Position numbers and translations under genes: made by a program. The notes beneath the pieces are model-generated. The model worked only from the letters and a program-made list of their open reading frames with translations. It was not told the DNA's origin and ran no database searches. This document shows, piece by piece, positions 3,109 through 18,128 of a DNA stretch of 64,000 nt (its first letter is position 1; each line of letters starts with the position of its first letter). Source of the DNA: an uncultured Chloroflexia bacterium (GTDB lineage Bacteria > Chloroflexota > UBA5177); assembly GCA_963737125.1 (NCBI GenBank), contig CAVTRL010000003.1, forward strand, positions 132,204 to 196,203. The letters run 5' to 3'.

Positions 3109-3445
<337 letters not shown>

Positions 3446-3456
<11 letters not shown>

Positions 3457-3794
3457 GAGAGCCGTTCTCCGATCTACACCGGTGACGATATCTTCGATCG
3501 CGATGCGCGTGATCGCACTGCCTATGTCCGGTCTTCTTGCGGTACCGAACCTTTGGCTTGTACTTGAAAACGATGATTTTCTTGGCCGCGGGTCTGCTTG
3601 ACCACTCGTCCGACGACCTTTGCACCGTCGACCAACGGCCGGCCCTGGCGAAGACCACTGTCATCAGACACGAGCAGGACTTCGGTCAACTCGACGGTCT
3701 CGCCTTCCTCATACGGAAGCTTCTCGACCTCGATGATCTGACCCGGCTCGACGCGGTGCTGCTTGCCGCCAGTTTGAATGACTGCGAAAGGCAT
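3446..3794 (-). CDS. rplU: 50S ribosomal protein L21 (apparent internal frameshift)
   Basis: N-terminal [26 protein letters not shown] is in one frame. The C-terminal [21 protein letters not shown] motif is in another frame (ORF 3446..3664). Conserved rplU-rpmA order. Confidence 0.8.
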
Positions 3795-3891
3795 CCGACG
3801 TTCCTTCTGCTGTAGTGCGTTGATGCGCACCAGAAATTAACGGCCCCAGGAGGCCGCTCGCTGCCAGTCTAGCAACCAGATCGGGAGTTCG

Positions 3892-5048: not shown

Positions 5049-5078
5049 AATGAGCTCAAATGGCAGGAGGTCGACTCA

Positions 5079-5543
5079 ATGTCCTTCGAATCGAGAGCTC
5101 GGGACCTGGGGATCACCGTACCGGAACCGGCCAGACCGCTGGCGAGTTACGTGCCGGCGGTGCGGGCCGGTTCTTTCGTCTACACGTCCGGCCAGCTTCC
5201 CACGGTGAACGGTGAGCTGGAATGCCGCGGCATCGTCGGTGTCGACGTGAATGACGAACAGGCAAATCACGCGGCACGCACCGCGCTGATCAACGCCCTG
5301 GCGGCGGTGGGAACAGTAGCCTCGCTCGACGACGTTGTCCAGGTGGTGCGAGTGACCGGCTACGTGGCCAGCGCGCCTCACTTCACAGGTCAGCCGGGGG
5401 TCCTGAACGGCGCTTCAGACTTGCTACTGGAGCTGTTCGGTGACGCCGGCAAACACAGCCGCGCGGCCGTCGGAGTGGCATCGCTTCCGTTAGGTGCGCC
5501 GGTGGAGATTGACTTGATCGTGCAGCTACGAACGTCGGATTAG
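5079..5543 (+). CDS. RidA/YjgF (endoribonuclease L-PSP) family protein
   Basis: [41 protein letters not shown]... RidA signature. RBS GGCAGGAGG lies upstream of ATG 5079. The 5' part of the long ORF 4317..5543 is read-through. Confidence 0.8.
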
Positions 5544-11896: not shown

Positions 11897-12604
11897 TCAG
11901 TCGTGTGGGTGTATATCGTCGGGCGGAACGAGTCCCCGTTGTAGCGCAAGTCGCGTTGCCTCAACTCTCGACCCCGCCTGCATTTTATGTAAAATATGAC
12001 TGACATGGTGATCCACGGTTCGCTGACTGAGGTAGAGCCGAGCGGCAATATCGGCGTTACTGAGACCGCGTGCGACGAGCTGGAGTACCTGGACCTCGCG
12101 GGCGGTCAGTCCGAATGGTATATCGGCCGATTCCTCCCTCTCCAGATCACCGAAGTCCTCGCCGGAGTCCACGGGCCGCACAACGGCAGTGAGCCCCTCC
12201 ATGCGGACAACTTCCACCTCGCTACCGATCGGTATGACGATACCTGCTGGTTCGGGACGCGCGGTCCAGAACTGGCCGACTCCTACCCGAATCTGGCCGT
12301 TGAGTTGCGAGACCGATTCTTCGACGAGAGCGCGTTGTCCGACCGGGCCGATCGCCGGTGCATTGTTGGATGCCGACGCACGCGGCAGGAGATGGAGGAC
12401 GGCCGGACGGACCGCCAGGAGCAAGACGAGTGAGACCAGGCAGAAAAAGACGATCTGGACCGGTACCGGAGCGGCGAGCGAGACGGCGGCGGTGAGCAGT
12501 GCCGCAATGGAGAGAGAGGCAAGAAACAATCCTAACGATAGAAGCTCACCGACCAACGTTACGATGGCGACGATGAGCCACACCAACCAGAGGGTTTGCG
12601 GCAT
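11897..12604 (-). CDS. Membrane-anchored NfeD-like OB-fold domain fused to a C-terminal LuxR-type HTH
   Basis: Two N-terminal TM helices. NfeD β-barrel motif GQIRVGVGQFWTARPEPAG...EVEVVRMEGLTAVVRP. C-terminal LTAREVQVLQLVARGLSNADIAARLYLSQRTVDHHVSHILHKM (LuxR/GerE HTH). Confidence 0.75.
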   Translation of the reverse strand: MPQTLWLVWLIVAIVTLVGELLSLGLFLASLSIAALLTAAVSLAAPVPVQIVFFCLVSLVLLLAVRPAVLHLLPRASASNNAPAIGPVGQRALVEESVSQLNGQIRVGVGQFWTARPEPAGIVIPIGSEVEVVRMEGLTAVVRPVDSGEDFGDLEREESADIPFGLTAREVQVLQLVARGLSNADIAARLYLSQRTVDHHVSHILHKMQAGSRVEATRLALQRGLVPPDDIHPHD

Positions 12605-12874
12605 GCGGCGGGATGCTCCTGGGCCGGGCGGCCCACGGGATTCGAATAGGCAGGGTGCCTACGGCCAAAATGGGCACAAATACCGATGATTTAGGTGAGA
12701 AAAAGGCGTAGGTTGTGAGTGAGAGGTTGGAATGACAAGTCTCCGAGCTCTCAGAGGAGAGACCGATTCGAAGAACTGCTTCCCGAGAGATTTTACGTGG
12801 AATGATAGCCGTCAACGGTTGTGGAGAGGCAGATAGTCGCGGGCCGCGGTAAAGGCCAGACCGAGAGGTAAGCA

Positions 12875-13369
12875 ATGGGGACGTGGTGGGTATGGCTGGT
12901 AATAGCTCTACTCGCAGGAGTAGGGGAACTGATGACTACCGGTTTGTTCTTCGCGATCGTCGCGGCGGCAGCGGTGTTGATAGCGCTGGTGGCACTGGTG
13001 CTGCCGATAGCGGCCGTGCAGGTCGCGCTGTTCGCGGGCATATCGTTGGGCGGAGTCGTGTTTCTTCGGCCCGCTCTGATGGGTGTACTGAATCTGCAGA
13101 CGCTCGCGCACGGGTCGGGTGACACCGTGCAATCTCGGGTCGCCGGCAAGCGGGCCACGGTGACGCGCACGGTCGACCTGGCAGGAGGACAAATTCGAGT
13201 CGGTGACGGCGAGTTCTGGTCGGCGCGAGCGTACGATCCGGACGATCTGATTCCAGTCGGCGCATCGGCCGACATCGTCGTGGTTGATGGGCTAACCGCT
13301 CTGGTGACACCCGTGGTACCGTTGACACTTGAACACGATGCACAACTGACAACAGAGAAAGGGGCATGA
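12875..13369 (+). CDS. NfeD-like (short form) membrane protein
   Basis: N-terminal TM helices plus GGQIRVGDGEFWSARAYDPDDLIPVGASADIVVVDGLTALVTPV OB-fold. Sits immediately upstream of the SPFH gene. Confidence 0.8.
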   Translation: MGTWWVWLVIALLAGVGELMTTGLFFAIVAAAAVLIALVALVLPIAAVQVALFAGISLGGVVFLRPALMGVLNLQTLAHGSGDTVQSRVAGKRATVTRTVDLAGGQIRVGDGEFWSARAYDPDDLIPVGASADIVVVDGLTALVTPVVPLTLEHDAQLTTEKGA

Positions 13370-13372
13370 GAA

Positions 13373-14347
13373 ATGCTTGGTCTCGAAATCGTATTGGCGG
13401 TCCTCGTATTGTTTGTGCTGATCACCGGATTTAAATCAATCCGGGTGGTCCCGCAGGCACGCGTCATCGTCGTACAGCGGCTTGGCCGCTACCTGAAAAC
13501 CTCCGGAAGCGGACCGGTATTCGTGATCCCGTTCGTGGACAAAATCCTTCCGACGGTTGATTTGCGCGAGCAGGTCGTGCCGTTCCCACCACAGGCAGTG
13601 ATTACGTCAGACAACGTCGGAATCCAGGTAGCCACAGTCGTGTACTACCAGATCATCGACGCAAAGAACTCAACCTATCAGGTGGTGGATCTGGTTGCGG
13701 CCATGGAGCAGCTCACCATCACGACGCTTCGTAACGTCATCGGTGGGCTTACCCTCGACCGCGCACTTACCAGCCGGGAGGACATCAACTCCAACATGCG
13801 GGCCTCGCTGGACGAGGTAACGGAAGGTTGGGGCGTGCGCGTTAATCGTGTCGAGCTGAAAGACATCATCCCGCCACACGATGTCCAGCAGGCGATGGAA
13901 AAGCAGATGCAGGCGGAGCGCGAAAAGCGAGCGTCGATCCTACGGGCCGAAGGCATGAAGCAGTCGTCGATTCTGCAGGCGGAAGGGGAGAAGCAGTCCG
14001 CAATCCTCACGGCCGAAGGTCAACGACAGGCGAGCATCCTGCAAGCTGAAGGTGAAGCGCAAGCTCTGGTCACCATCCAGACCGCGCAGGCGCAGGCGGT
14101 ACACGTGGTGTTCGACGCGCTCAACGAGGCGCACGCCACGCCGGAAATCCTGAAGTACCTGTACATTCAGAGCCTACCGAAGATCGCCGAAGGCTCCGCC
14201 AACAAGCTGTTCATCGTGCCCTCCGAACTGCAAAGCATCGCAAGCATGGGCGCGACATTCTCGGCGGCGTCCGAAAACAACGGCAATGCCAACGGCGCGC
14301 CGATCGTGCCGCAGATCACCTCGGGCCGAACCGGCTCGACCAGCTAA
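13373..14347 (+). CDS. SPFH/band-7 (stomatin/prohibitin-like) protein
   Basis: N-terminal TM helix, SPFH core (VVPQARVIVVQRLGRY..., TSDNVGIQV), and a coiled-coil region with AEG/ILQAEG repeats. Confidence 0.9.
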   Translation: MLGLEIVLAVLVLFVLITGFKSIRVVPQARVIVVQRLGRYLKTSGSGPVFVIPFVDKILPTVDLREQVVPFPPQAVITSDNVGIQVATVVYYQIIDAKNSTYQVVDLVAAMEQLTITTLRNVIGGLTLDRALTSREDINSNMRASLDEVTEGWGVRVNRVELKDIIPPHDVQQAMEKQMQAEREKRASILRAEGMKQSSILQAEGEKQSAILTAEGQRQASILQAEGEAQALVTIQTAQAQAVHVVFDALNEAHATPEILKYLYIQSLPKIAEGSANKLFIVPSELQSIASMGATFSAASENNGNANGAPIVPQITSGRTGSTS

Positions 14348-14503: not shown

Positions 14504-15766
14504 TCACCTCCCCATGTCCGGTACCAGCGAGTACCACACATGGCGGCGGGAACCAGCGATTTGGGCGGTACCGTTGAACCGATAGGCCGGGACGAGATAG
14601 AGGGTTCCCTCCTTCGCGGACGTGAGAATGGATACGATGTGCGTCCCGAGCAGGCTGCCAACGCCTCCAGACTTGTCTGACGGCGAGATGTCCTCCACCG
14701 CGAGTGGTGACGTCCCGCGTCGGACCTGGTCCCAGGCCTGTGTAACTGAGCGCGCCGCGAGTACGCCATGACGCGCGATTGGTGGCCAGACCCAAGCTTC
14801 GATGACGCTTCCATCCGGTGTGATCCACATCGTCGCCTCATTCGTCGCTGTCGGCCCCACGTGGGGCCACCCGAACTCAACTGCCCGAACCTTTGCCAAG
14901 TGGAAGACGGGGTGAAACGATCGGAGCGGCATGCGGTACGCGGGCCATCCGAGCTGCTCCAGCCATTGTCGGGCAATTGCTACCGCGCGCTGCTGGGTGA
15001 TGGGATGCCTCGCCAAGGGCAACACGTGATTGCGCCGGTCGTGATAGATTAACTCCCCGTTGCGAGTCGAGATGGCAAGACTGTGGAGTGCTCCGTGTGC
15101 CGGCACACCGCCGTCCTGTGCCACGAGCCAGGTCACGGCGTCCGCTTGCACGCGCCTGACTCTTGCGGAGATATGAAGCAACCGGCGACCACGAGTGATG
15201 ACGCCGGACGGGAGCGCCAGTCGGTAGGCCGCTTCGCTCGACGGCTCGTGGGGAAGAGCGCGAGCCAACAGTCGCAGATGACCGGCGTACGGTATGGCAG
15301 ACACCGGGTGTACAAGGCTGAGCGTGGCCGTGAGCCGGTGAACGGCGACTGGCACCGACGGAAGGTTGAAGAGCAGATCGGCTCGCTGAGGATAAGGAGC
15401 CGTGAATGAGTGCGTTGATGATCCGGTAGTGTGGTACGTCCTGAATAACAGAACCGCGATGAGTACGGCGGTAGCCAGGACGGATACGCCGATCCTCCTC
15501 GGAAACGAGATCGTCTCCGGTTTCTCGACGGGACGTGCACCCGGGCGACGCAATAACCGGGCACGGAGATTACGGGCAAAGGTTGGATGCGGAGCCAGCT
15601 CCTCGTCATCTACCAGGTGCGCTCGTAGCCGCATGGCAAAAACGGGATCCATTTCCGCTTCGAATCGCTCCTGCTGCACTATGAGCGGTCCAACCCTCGA
15701 TAGCTGCTGCTCGAGCTCGTCCTCGGAAAGCGGCACACGACGCAGATCACGGTCCATGTCAGACAT
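14504..15766 (-). CDS. Anti-sigma factor-like membrane protein (one TM helix, large extracytoplasmic domain)
   Basis: Start MSDMDRDLRRVPLSEDELEQ overlaps the stop of the upstream ECF sigma gene. Cytoplasmic N-terminus, TM helix IGVSVLATAVLIAVLLF, about 300-aa C-terminal domain. Confidence 0.6.
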   Translation of the reverse strand: MSDMDRDLRRVPLSEDELEQQLSRVGPLIVQQERFEAEMDPVFAMRLRAHLVDDEELAPHPTFARNLRARLLRRPGARPVEKPETISFPRRIGVSVLATAVLIAVLLFRTYHTTGSSTHSFTAPYPQRADLLFNLPSVPVAVHRLTATLSLVHPVSAIPYAGHLRLLARALPHEPSSEAAYRLALPSGVITRGRRLLHISARVRRVQADAVTWLVAQDGGVPAHGALHSLAISTRNGELIYHDRRNHVLPLARHPITQQRAVAIARQWLEQLGWPAYRMPLRSFHPVFHLAKVRAVEFGWPHVGPTATNEATMWITPDGSVIEAWVWPPIARHGVLAARSVTQAWDQVRRGTSPLAVEDISPSDKSGGVGSLLGTHIVSILTSAKEGTLYLVPAYRFNGTAQIAGSRRHVWYSLVPDMGR

Positions 15767-16322
15767 CCGCCGATGCCTCCTCCACGAGACGCGCCTGCAG
15801 GGTCGCAAGTGCCCGTCGTAGTAACTGTTTCACCGCACCCTCAGTTCTCCCCATGCGTGCTGCCACAGTTGCAAAGGGCTGATCCTCGTAGAACCGCAAT
15901 CGTACAACTTCCTGCTGATCTGGTGGGAGCGCCGTAACATGTCCTCTGAGCCAATATGTCTGCTCCCATTCATGCAACCAACTCGTCGTCCCGTCGAGAC
16001 TGAGCGAAGAGGCATGCAAGAAACCGCGGCTGGAGCGCCGACTTCGATCCTTAGCGGCGTTGGCCGCAATGCGGATCAGCCAGGCGGACAAGGGTAGCCC
16101 ACGGTAGTCGTATCGCCGGATCGCGCGCAGGGCCTGTTCAAAGGTCTGCGCGGTTAAGTCTTCGGCTTCTTCCCGGGTGCCACTTTGGAGGCGGCAGAAC
16201 GCATACACGCGGGGAAGATAGTGGTCATAAATCTCACCGAATGCCGCCCGGTCCGTGCGTGCGCGCTCGATAACGTCGGGAGAGATCTGCGCCCGTCGCT
16301 CCGCTCCCGCCTGGACCTCCAT
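15759..16322 (-). CDS. ECF (RpoE-type) sigma-70 family sigma factor
   Basis: Region 2 (YDHYLPRVYAFCRLQSGTREEAEDLTAQTFEQALRAI) and region 4 (LPPDQQEVVRLRFYEDQPFATVAARMGRTEGAVKQLLRRA) motifs. Confidence 0.85.
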   Translation of the reverse strand: MEVQAGAERRAQISPDVIERARTDRAAFGEIYDHYLPRVYAFCRLQSGTREEAEDLTAQTFEQALRAIRRYDYRGLPLSAWLIRIAANAAKDRSRRSSRGFLHASSLSLDGTTSWLHEWEQTYWLRGHVTALPPDQQEVVRLRFYEDQPFATVAARMGRTEGAVKQLLRRALATLQARLVEEASADV

Positions 16323-16447
16323 GGAGTGCTCCCTCGCCTGTGGGATGTCCGAACCGTTCTTTGCATTGTAGGCGCGCGTACCTTTTCCTGGCGGTGGTGC
16401 GTTTACCTTCTCTGGAATGACGTAACACGGACAGAAGAAGGAGATTC

Positions 16448-17245
16448 ATGGTTTTGTTAGCGGTCCATCAAGATATCGGGGATGCGGTGGTGACAGCATT
16501 CGCCTCCGCACTTGCCCTACTCCTCGGGGGCATCCCGAAAATCATCGCATTCCTGCTGATCCTCATCGTCGGCTGGATCATAGCCAGTATTGTGGCGAAG
16601 GTGATCACGACGGTGCTGCGCGCGGTGAAATTTAACGATATGGCGCAGCGATCAGGCATTGCCGGGTTTGTCAAGGATATGGGGGTTGATACCGATTCTT
16701 CCGGTGTAATCGCCGGAATCGTCAAGTGGTTCATCCGTTTGATTTTCCTTGTAGCGGCATTCGACGCATTGGGGCTTCCCGCCGTTTCGGCGGTCCTGCA
16801 GCAGTTCCTGCTTTGGATACCGAACCTGGTTGTGGCCCTGGTCATCCTTGTCATCGGCGGCTTGCTAGCCAAGGCACTGGCCGATATCGTGCGCGGTGCC
16901 ACGAGAGAAGCCCAGCTCGGCAATCCCGACCTCATGGCTACCATCGCGCGCATGGCCGTGATTGCGTTCGCAATCATCATCGCGGTCAACCAGATCGGCA
17001 TCGCTACCACGTTGGTCAACACCCTCTTCATGGGTGTCGTCGCCACGTTTGTCATTGCTTTTGGTCTCGCCTTTGGACTCGGCGGACGAGAGGTCGCAGC
17101 CCAGATCACACAGAACTGGTATGCGAAAAGCCAGGGCGCGGCACCGAAGCTGTCCCAAGCGGCAAGCGCCGCTGGAGATCAGGCGCAGGCCAAAAAAGAT
17201 CAGATGGCTCCAGGAGAGGAGTCAGCGAGTAGACCAGTCAGTTAG
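16448..17245 (+). CDS. Conserved-TM-helix repeat membrane protein
   Basis: Multiple hydrophobic helices with repeated G/A-rich TM pattern (IIAFLLILIVGWIIASIVAKVIT..., FIRLIFLVAAFDALG...). C-terminal charged tail. Confidence 0.6.
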   Translation: MVLLAVHQDIGDAVVTAFASALALLLGGIPKIIAFLLILIVGWIIASIVAKVITTVLRAVKFNDMAQRSGIAGFVKDMGVDTDSSGVIAGIVKWFIRLIFLVAAFDALGLPAVSAVLQQFLLWIPNLVVALVILVIGGLLAKALADIVRGATREAQLGNPDLMATIARMAVIAFAIIIAVNQIGIATTLVNTLFMGVVATFVIAFGLAFGLGGREVAAQITQNWYAKSQGAAPKLSQAASAAGDQAQAKKDQMAPGEESASRPVS

Positions 17246-17300
17246 CACCACTACGGGTTCAACAAACGCACACACGACTAGAAGTAAAGGAGAAAGCACA

Positions 17301-18128
17301 ATGAACAGCGGAACGACTGCACCGGATCAATTGTTTGGATCACAGGTCATGGATTCGGCCGGGGACGAGGTCGGCGACGTCGACGGCGTATGGGTGGACG
17401 ACGCCACGGACGAGCTTGAGTTCGTGAGCGTCAAACTGGGCTTCCTCGTGGGAAAGCCCCACATCATACCGCTGGCGAATGCTCAGGTCTCAGCCGACGG
17501 CATCACTGTCCCGTACAGCAAGGATCAGATCAAAGATGCCCCGAGCTTCGCGACAGACGATGAGATAAGTCCCGAGGACGAAGACGAGATCTATAGCTAT
17601 TACGGGATCGATCGTTCCACGTCCTCCAGCCCGAGCGGGCTTCCAACCGGCGAGGGTACAGACGCCGGAACGGACGTCACTTCGACCGACTACGCTACGT
17701 CAGGGCGACGAGATACCGGCCGCGACCTCAGCACCGATCGCGACCAGAGCGTGACTCTCCACGAGGAAGAATTGGCGGTCGGGAAGCGCAACGTTGAAGC
17801 GGGTCGGGTGCGTCTGAGGAAAGTGGTTCGTACCGAGCACCAGGAAGTGCCGGTGGAACTTCGCCGCGAAGAGGTCGAGATCGAACGGGTTCCTGCCACT
17901 GGTGACGACGCCGGCACCACGGCATTTCAGGAGCAGGAGATCGAAATCCCGGTCATGCGGGAAGAGGCCGTGGCCAACAAGGAAGTCCGCGCAACGGAGC
18001 AGGTGCGGCTCAATAAGACCGCACAGACCGAGACGGAAACAGTTGGTGGTGACGTTCGGTCTGAAGAGGTCGAGATTGATGACGACACTGACACGGACAT
18101 CCAGGATGCACCCGGCAACCGACGCTGA
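17301..18128 (+). CDS. PRC-barrel plus DUF2382 (YsnF-like) stress-response protein
   Basis: RBS AAGGAGAAAG precedes ATG 17301. N-terminal PRC-barrel (VMDSAGDEVGDVDGVWVDD). C-terminal DUF2382 motif pattern (EEELAVGKRNVEAGRVRLRKVVRTE...EEVEIERVP). Confidence 0.7.
   Translation: MNSGTTAPDQLFGSQVMDSAGDEVGDVDGVWVDDATDELEFVSVKLGFLVGKPHIIPLANAQVSADGITVPYSKDQIKDAPSFATDDEISPEDEDEIYSYYGIDRSTSSSPSGLPTGEGTDAGTDVTSTDYATSGRRDTGRDLSTDRDQSVTLHEEELAVGKRNVEAGRVRLRKVVRTEHQEVPVELRREEVEIERVPATGDDAGTTAFQEQEIEIPVMREEAVANKEVRATEQVRLNKTAQTETETVGGDVRSEEVEIDDDTDTDIQDAPGNRR

Follow-up and report, generated by a model that had tools for sequence, protein, structure and literature searches.

The stretch of DNA analyzed here (the window) comprises 64,000 nucleotides of contig CAVTRL010000003.1 from an uncultured Chloroflexia bacterium, and it carries on its minus strand, at positions 11897-12604, a gene for a protein of 235 residues in which an NfeD module is joined to a LuxR-type (GerE) helix-turn-helix (HTH) domain. 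This NfeD::GerE fusion gene, with a Shine-Dalgarno-like AGGAG 11 nt 5' of its ATG (12616-12620, minus strand), is transcribed divergently from two genes of the plus strand, which encode a canonical short NfeD protein of 164 residues (12875-13369) and a QmcA-type SPFH/stomatin protein of 324 residues (13373-14347). An earlier note, made from the letters alone, had described these three open reading frames (ORFs) and the 270-bp intergenic region shared by the divergent genes (12605-12874), and both were confirmed. As argued below, the explanation that best accounts for the locus, and which we consider moderately probable from comparative sequence analysis, would be that the fusion is a membrane-anchored one-component regulator of nfeD-SPFH with NfeD as its input.

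The fusion protein belongs by domain and by fold both to the NfeD family and to the GerE/NarL-type HTH proteins. The Pfam family NfeD (PF01957) covers residues 88-144 with 43.1 bits (cut-off 29.1) and GerE (PF00196) covers residues 166-220 with 69.5 bits (cut-off 23.5), which bears out the earlier reading of an NfeD and a LuxR-type HTH in one protein and settles the doubt then raised about whether the C-terminal segment is a LuxR HTH. NCBIfam yields only similarity to NarL/FixJ-type HTH domains, in the C-terminal part. Neither Pfam nor NCBIfam finds a receiver, an autoinducer-binding or another ligand-binding domain in the N-terminal part, which is NfeD alone; the fusion is therefore grouped with the architectural variants of the LuxR family and not with response regulators or quorum-sensing receptors. 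Also, no protease domain is detected by Pfam. The NfeD-family feature of sharing an operon with an SPFH gene is found in the canonical paralogue and not in the fusion, which lies on the opposite strand.

An AlphaFold2 model built on a family alignment of 27 sequences (mean predicted local distance difference test score, pLDDT, of 84) shows three hydrophobic helices at residues 2-19, 25-41 and 47-72, within a segment (residues 1-72; 12389-12604, minus strand) that holds the invariant residues E20 and R66. Hydropathy gives the same three helices, so the count of two transmembrane (TM) helices in the earlier note has to be corrected. These are followed by the OB-fold β-barrel (residues 88-145; 12170-12343, minus strand), modeled as five strands at 91-144, by a linker that is disordered in the model (residues 146-164; 12113-12169, minus strand; pLDDT below 50 at residues 149-157), and by a four-helix HTH of the NarL/GerE type (residues 165-222, modeled helices at 168-222; 11939-12112, minus strand), whose recognition helix RTVDHHVSHIL begins at nucleotide 12022 and occurs in no other protein of the window. 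A structural search of the Protein Data Bank (PDB) with the whole model gives as best match YbbJ of the Escherichia coli QmcA-YbbJ cryo-electron microscopy complex (PDB code: 8z5g), where fusion residues 1-146 superpose on full-length YbbJ over 146 aligned columns. The barrel itself superposes on 3cp0 and 3wwv with a root-mean-square deviation of 1.0-1.1 Å (about 1 Å when YbbJ is included), and the HTH, which the PDB also matches by sequence, lies within 0.6-1.2 Å of the DNA-binding domains of NarL, LiaR, DegU, VraR and GerE, at 31-48% identity.

Regarding topology, the family mean of lysine plus arginine residues per sequence is 3.3 in the 27 residues past the third TM helix and about 0 at the N terminus and in both interhelix loops. 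Because these residues are enriched only after the third helix, the positive-inside rule places the barrel and the HTH in the cytoplasm (N-out, C-in), as the model of the earlier note needed. The extracytoplasmic loops span about 8 residues at most, and no extracytoplasmic domain is found by Pfam or AlphaFold2. Model and charge distribution thus indicate a membrane-anchored LuxR-type factor with a predicted cytoplasmic HTH. Experimental work agrees with this, as it locates the OB domain of NfeD on the cytoplasmic side and shows that this domain dimerizes and makes direct contact, via β3-β4, with the coiled coil of flotillin (PMC11222466).

A census of this architecture, which the earlier note had proposed, retrieved about 30 clusters from a single-sequence search and about 62 clusters at 90% identity, carrying both PF01957 and PF00196, from a profile search. 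The members are 45-63% identical to the window protein, with scores dropping steeply past the last of them, and come from NCBI, JGI, ENA and Logan assemblies, all the named sources being uncultured Chloroflexota. Full-length fusions are present in only 3 of 185,579 GTDB species representatives, all of them Chloroflexota metagenome-assembled genomes, and the family shrinks to about four entries among 1.84 billion representatives at 50% identity. The alignment is continuous, with both domains conserved and the linker alone variable (10-33 residues). Almost no variation is seen in the recognition helix, S-x-R-T-V-(D/H)-H-H-V-S-H-I, and the barrel is as conserved as the HTH, keeping throughout the family a motif, GQIRVGxGEFWSAR, that it has in common with the adjoining canonical NfeD. 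The names given in databases are automatic only, either [quoted passage not shown] or a double COG name from JGI.

On the other side of the intergenic region, the canonical NfeD (Pfam NfeD, 37.6 bits) is 42% identical to the fusion over the TM and OB regions (31 of 67 positions in the former and 27 of 58 in the latter), and the two NfeDs are paralogues. The gap of 3 nt between nfeD and the SPFH gene indicates a single operon. The SPFH protein (Band_7, 138.8 bits) carries a cluster of lysine and arginine residues directly after its single N-terminal helix and is a full-length homologue of E. coli QmcA (E = 1.1e-60 across residues 7-295); since nfeD lies directly upstream of it, the operon corresponds to a QmcA-YbbJ-type pair. 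QmcA-YbbJ is described as 26 heterodimers that build a cage in the cytoplasm (PMC13086221, with reference to Tan et al. 2024).

The divergent orientation described in the earlier note is kept in 12 of the 13 informative loci, over 45-63% protein divergence. The order found in the window, Fpg - ABC-F - CoaE - [NfeD::GerE] facing nfeD - SPFH, is found again in L001, L005, L006, L008, L009, L010, L011, L032, L033, L035, L045 and one JGI contig, whereas L004 is rearranged and L034 ends at a contig edge. A comparison of the window with L035 gives identities of 87% for SPFH, 68% for the canonical NfeD, 61% for the NfeD part of the fusion and 71% for its HTH, so that the scaffold is by far the most conserved of these proteins and its NfeD partners and the regulator change more rapidly.

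The shared intergenic region contains a composite putative operator (12646-12687) with the consensus ATCGGTA-N4-TGCCCAT-(7-10 nt, T-rich)-ATGGGCA-N3-4-TGCCTAT, that is, two 18-bp inverted repeats made of four related heptamers, which we take to resemble the TACYYMT half-sites of NarL. The palindrome proximal to the fusion (h4-h3; ATAGGCA-ggg-TGCCTAC, 12646-12662) lies 41 nt from its ATG, a distance that ranges from -2 to 76 nt across loci, and the distal palindrome (h3'-h1'; ATGGGCA-caaa-TACCGAT, 12670-12687) faces nfeD. All the fusion loci examined contain the operator, the four heptamers being present in 13 of the 13 with upstream DNA. Moreover, in a footprint of 14 aligned intergenic regions, near-invariant columns are confined to the four heptamers and a CAC-N2-TACGCC box, the rest having diverged. 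Conserved 18-bp palindromes that accompany both the fusion gene and its recognition helix are a putative inverted-repeat site for the HTH. Since the gap between the palindromes varies from 7 to 10 bp, they would represent two separately used dimer sites and not one cooperative tetramer site.

The operator and the fusion occur together. Eight fusion-less nfeD-SPFH loci, with SPFH proteins 64-81% identical, lack the operator. A scan for the operator alone in 241 million metagenome records returned 11 loci, of which nine resemble chance matches within coding sequence and only two combine the four heptamers with the box; in these two, the site adjoins nfeD-SPFH and a fusion gene. In the rearranged locus L004, the NfeD::GerE gene and a paralogous NfeD::cyclase gene each have a full operator in front of them, and the relocated nfeD-SPFH retains a single palindrome about 100 nt upstream. 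Within the window, the 18-mer has one zero-mismatch match, at 12670, and three matches in all at two or fewer mismatches, against 0.26 expected by chance. The two weaker matches are without promoter architecture, leaving 12670 as the sole site that combines the palindrome, the 21-22 nt spacing and TAnnnT. Accordingly, no further regulon site with the full architecture was found in the window, nor in the metagenome scan, whose strict pattern could have missed distant members. This conserved four-heptamer putative operator, strictly co-occurring with the fusion, is what is new here. An RNA hairpin or terminator at the palindrome was also considered and rejected, because the arms vary independently, with no compensatory changes, as is expected where a protein binds and not where RNA pairs into a stem. 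Rfam has no match at the palindrome, two tRNA genes (2838-2910 and 3112-3184, minus strand) being its sole matches at gathering threshold in the 64 kb, and a terminator scan there gave results at chance level.

Toward nfeD, the distal palindrome is followed after 21 nt by a -10-like hexamer, TAGGTT (12709-12714, plus strand), inside the conserved GGCGTAnnGTGAG box, which reads GGCG-TAnnnT-GAG on the nfeD strand. In 16 loci out of 16, the 45 nt that follow the distal palindrome contain exactly one TAnnnT, and its offset is in every case 21 or 22; the background probability of finding it at either of two fixed offsets is 0.0078 per locus in the window. If the hexamer is set at -12 to -7, these offsets put the center of the palindrome at -42.5/-43.5. 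A position of about -42.5 is that of the lux box, classical for class II LuxR-type activator sites, and the distal palindrome would then serve class II activation of the promoter that reads toward nfeD. The predicted transcription start would be near 12721, giving a 5' untranslated region (5'UTR) of about 154 nt to nfeD. There is no good -35 element near the box, which fits an activator-dependent promoter, although it is not positive evidence for one.

Three of these 16 loci (L028-L030) do not contain the fusion but Dehalococcoidia PAS-PAS-LuxR genes, which were found solely through a recognition-helix peptide identical to RTVDHHVSHIL. In these loci (L028 3236-3480; L029 4220-4465; L030 about 1434-1700), the same 18-bp palindrome lies about 12 nt past the stop codon and is followed by TATnnT at 21 nt. 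The recurrence of helix, palindrome and spacing beside an unrelated protein and in another class argues that the HTH recognizes the palindrome and activates from about -42.5, and it is the strongest available evidence for both the pairing and the activation. If so, a recognition code is predicted, in which the helix RTVDHHVSHIL goes with ATsGGyA-N4-TrCCyAT at -42.5, common to the fusion and to Dehalococcoidia PAS-LuxR regulators. In the same loci, the palindrome is followed by a conserved region of about 200 nt, convergent with purU, which folds into one extended hairpin, some of its pairs being compensatory, and belongs to no Rfam family; this region is a candidate activator-dependent small RNA.

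The arrangement on the fusion side is different. The idea that the proximal palindrome serves the fusion gene symmetrically, as a class II site of its own, was rejected as a general rule, the TAnnnT hexamers there being found at 7-35 nt or not at all. Because these hexamers are scattered, and because in several loci the start codon of the fusion lies within 25 nt of the last heptamer, the proximal palindrome would overlap the core promoter or leader of the regulator itself. This points weakly to autoregulation, probably negative.

Some loci carry additional elements around the operator. In L002, the composite operator is present in two tandem copies (5197-5241 and 5315-5359), likewise in L003, and in both an extra ORF of 167 residues (L002 5454-5957, plus strand), whose product has a hydrophobic tail and a double zinc ribbon (DZR) that scores below cut-off, sits between the operator and the fusion gene with a gap of 43 nt, being probably co-transcribed with the fusion. 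Only L011 has an ORF of 53 residues (3712-3873, minus strand), with one hydrophobic helix and GGAGG ahead of it, between the predicted regulated promoter and nfeD. Also, a second conserved element, CTGACTGTAGCAC, which on the nfeD strand reads GTGCTACAGTCAG and contains an extended -10-like TGnTAnnnT, was recognized by eye 25-45 nt upstream of the nfeD start in several loci (L002, about 5050-5075; L004, 6376-6392; and L008, L009 and L010, just ahead of nfeD). Its counterpart in the window is only a weaker GATAGT at 12832-12837. This element may be a constitutive promoter beside the regulated distal one.

In the mechanism favored here, a complete YbbJ-like NfeD module, with three TM helices, N-out/C-in topology and a cytoplasmic OB barrel, would hold the HTH at the inner face of the membrane through the 10-33-residue linker, and HTH dimers would bind the two palindromes of the divergent region. 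From the distal one, 21-22 nt ahead of the -10-like hexamer, the regulator would most likely act as a class II activator of nfeD-SPFH, and from the proximal one, which abuts or overlaps its own promoter and start, it would most likely control itself, probably by repression. A regulatory link from the fusion to nfeD-SPFH is supported by the comparative data, and we regard this transcriptional part of the mechanism as likely. The input would be the NfeD module itself, which would enter the QmcA-type SPFH assembly, competing there with the canonical NfeD or taking its place. The DNA-binding competence of the HTH would then depend on the state or stoichiometry of the SPFH/NfeD assembly, closing a homeostatic loop. 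Two versions can be considered, one in which incorporation silences the HTH (homeostatic negative feedback) and another in which it promotes HTH dimerization (positive feedback). This SPFH-sensing part is put forward tentatively, as a possibility that we would not presume. The earlier note had implied a membrane-tethered factor that feeds back on the operon and whose activity reports on SPFH scaffold or membrane-microdomain status; the first element gains comparative support from the operator and the promoter geometry, and the second one stays at the level of a suggestion, drawn from the completeness of the NfeD module that the fusion has kept.

Several observations weigh against this mechanism. 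The confidence of the AlphaFold2 model in the relative placement of the domains is low (predicted template modeling score of 0.44). A scan with the strict sigma-70 consensus finds no promoter in the intergenic region, the conserved -10-only box having come from comparative footprinting, and the regulated promoter would leave 5'UTRs of very different lengths across loci, from about 26 to more than 200 nt. Moreover, the second promoter-like element nearer to nfeD in several loci implies that the control of SPFH would possibly be partial, and the irregular hexamers ahead of the fusion gene make autorepression less certain. Every locus studied comes from an uncultured organism; the fusion clade is small and restricted to Chloroflexota, and each functional step is one that we infer.

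Two further architectures with an NfeD module also bear on the origin of the signal. In L004, the protein P0031 (1773-2807, plus strand) combines NfeD (40 bits) with an adenylate/guanylate cyclase domain (Guanylate_cyc, 24.6 bits; cut-off 21.9); its gene is separated from NfeD::GerE by a Usp gene. P0031 keeps the same four-heptamer operator (L004 1694-1737) and the -10 box, which in this case points at a divergent operon encoding an NfeD of 160 residues, a protein of 130 residues and a PadR protein (L004 1150-1632, 755-1147 and 2-730, minus strand). This operon is without an SPFH gene, which counts as another point against the favored mechanism. Additionally, an independent NfeD::XRE-HTH family (HTH_31/HTH_3), of about 22 metagenomic clusters (P0233 and P0350-P0372), was seen in a single context (a contig of JGI 3300047160), where the gene is divergent from a GGDEF gene and not beside SPFH, again to the detriment of that mechanism. 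Adjacency to SPFH is therefore less likely to be intrinsic to regulators with an NfeD input. Because both siblings exist, NfeD looks like a reusable input module, whose signal may be a membrane property or the self-assembly of NfeD and not the adjoining SPFH protein. That this module is a reusable domain reading the occupancy or assembly of SPFH cages, or the membrane state that they organize, with LuxR-type, XRE-type and nucleotide cyclase outputs, is a speculative proposal that we consider somewhat doubtful. Literature searches found a description of neither NfeD::cyclase nor NfeD::XRE.

These siblings also speak for the alternative that survives best, in which the NfeD module would do no more than anchor the protein in the membrane and dimerize it, or else would sense the state of the bilayer or of isoprenoid lipids through TM helices with the invariant E20, independently of SPFH. 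According to this alternative, the adjacency would come from a local duplication plus the choice of target. The 42% identity of the NfeD part of the fusion to the adjoining NfeD is consistent with an in situ duplication, and both the XRE sibling in the context seen and the cyclase sibling, paired with the NfeD-130 aa-PadR operon, do without an SPFH neighbor. Also, the NfeD of Staphylococcus aureus goes to lipid microdomains via its TM region, and its OB domain self-dimerizes (PMC11222466). However, a mere anchor would not readily account for a barrel that retains the partner-binding motif GQIRVGxGEFWSAR under as much conservation as the HTH, nor for a divergent linkage to nfeD-SPFH kept over such protein divergence. 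We hold this alternative to be unlikely, although deserving of attention.

A much less probable alternative is the cleavage of the linker by a membrane protease, for instance of the FtsH or HtpX-type quality control, to which QmcA is tied genetically; this cleavage would free a soluble HTH, with the SPFH/NfeD assembly gating the cut. The disorder and variable length of the linker would suit a protease, QmcA has been described as rescuing lethal protease mutations with YbbJ as helper (PMC12086679), and in the long forms of NfeD a protease is present that cuts the SPFH protein paired with them (PMC13086221). Nonetheless, the family alignment reveals no conserved cleavage motif in the linker, no protease gene is conserved in the locus and the fusion has no protease domain of its own. 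Moreover, the bare GerE domain of 70 residues would be deprived of the dimerizing context that the OB domain may give.

The operator could also be bound by another regulator, the palindromes being part of the promoter architecture of the locus and the HTH of the fusion acting elsewhere or as a structural DNA tether. A candidate would be the OmpR-type response regulator conserved a few genes away from the fusion in related loci. However, OmpR-type factors bind direct repeats and not 18-bp palindromes, and the heptamers resemble NarL half-sites, as said above. Besides, the operator strictly co-occurs with the fusion, the same palindrome and 21-nt spacing lie beside a PAS-LuxR protein that is otherwise unrelated and has just the recognition helix in common with the fusion, and no other match to this helix peptide exists in the three GTDB genomes that carry the fusion. 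This makes another regulator highly improbable. Finally, an assembly or frameshift artefact joining an NfeD gene to a LuxR gene, the other doubt raised in the earlier note, is refuted by the census, where about 62 clusters, drawn from sources and assemblies independent of one another, show the same in-frame architecture and align continuously, and its probability is negligible.

The surroundings of the operon in the window have an envelope or stress flavor that related loci do not keep, these having instead baeRF_family10, DUF87 and DUF8166 genes. Downstream of the SPFH gene, this stretch (14504-18128) includes a protein of 434 residues (14504-15808, minus strand) that is without a Pfam match and possibly an anti-sigma factor, an overlapping gene for a sigma factor of the extracytoplasmic function type (15759-16322, minus strand), a protein with the TM repeats of mechanosensitive channels (16448-17245, plus strand) and a PRC-barrel/DUF2382 protein (16962-18128, plus strand).

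When the fusion is compared with known systems, the closest counterpart of its N-terminal module is YbbJ, which nevertheless stops after the OB barrel, whereas the fusion goes on into the linker and the DNA-binding domain. Moreover, its gene, which lies on the opposite strand, is no part of the nfeD-SPFH operon and accompanies a second, canonical NfeD. With the NarL/FixJ-LiaR-GerE regulators, the fusion shares the four-helix fold of the C-terminal domain and a likely target consisting of an 18-bp inverted repeat of NarL-like heptamers at about -42.5; in contrast to them, its input is a membrane-embedded NfeD module and no soluble N-terminal regulatory domain is present. ToxR, CadC, TcpP and BcrR also combine a membrane anchor and a cytoplasmic DNA-binding domain in one polypeptide, engage their DNA target at the membrane and often control adjacent genes. 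However, what characterizes ToxR and CadC is a winged helix of the OmpR type at the N terminus, together with just one TM helix and a sensor domain in the periplasm, whereas the fusion has a C-terminal LuxR-type HTH, three TM helices and a cytoplasmic OB domain as its likely input, the resemblance being a functional analogy only and not membership. A LuxR-family protein likewise controls an SPFH-NfeD operon in Salmonella and Enterobacter, where the LuxR solo SdiA acts on srgKJ, the orthologues of qmcA-ybbJ (PMC12086679; see also PMC11619404). SdiA is soluble, responds to acyl-homoserine lactones and acts in trans, whereas the fusion, an NfeD paralogue, has the LuxR domain within its own polypeptide chain. 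The NfeD::cyclase and NfeD::XRE proteins share with the fusion the N-terminal TM and OB module followed by an output domain, but their output domains differ.

Full-text literature searches found no description of an NfeD-HTH fusion, and a search for membrane-anchored LuxR proteins gave incidental matches only. This agrees with the statement of the earlier note that the architecture is not a described regulator class, although databases annotate both domains automatically. We rate the fusion as a one-component LuxR regulator that is anchored in the membrane and has an input domain new to this kind of protein, with a predicted operator, target promoter and recognition code, and the finding adds such an input domain to the one-component repertoire of both the LuxR and the XRE families. 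Which signal SPFH-NfeD systems respond to is a long-standing question, for which structures exist (QmcA-YbbJ, HflK/C and FloA-NfeD) and phenotypes are weak. In this regard, an NfeD paralogue that carries a transcription-factor domain, with a sharp putative operator and a target promoter, would be a ready-made genetic read-out of SPFH-NfeD sensing. Moreover, if NfeD modules do read SPFH cages, one-component signaling coupled to SPFH would have its founding case in NfeD::GerE, with a defined operator from which a qmcA-like operon would be activated.

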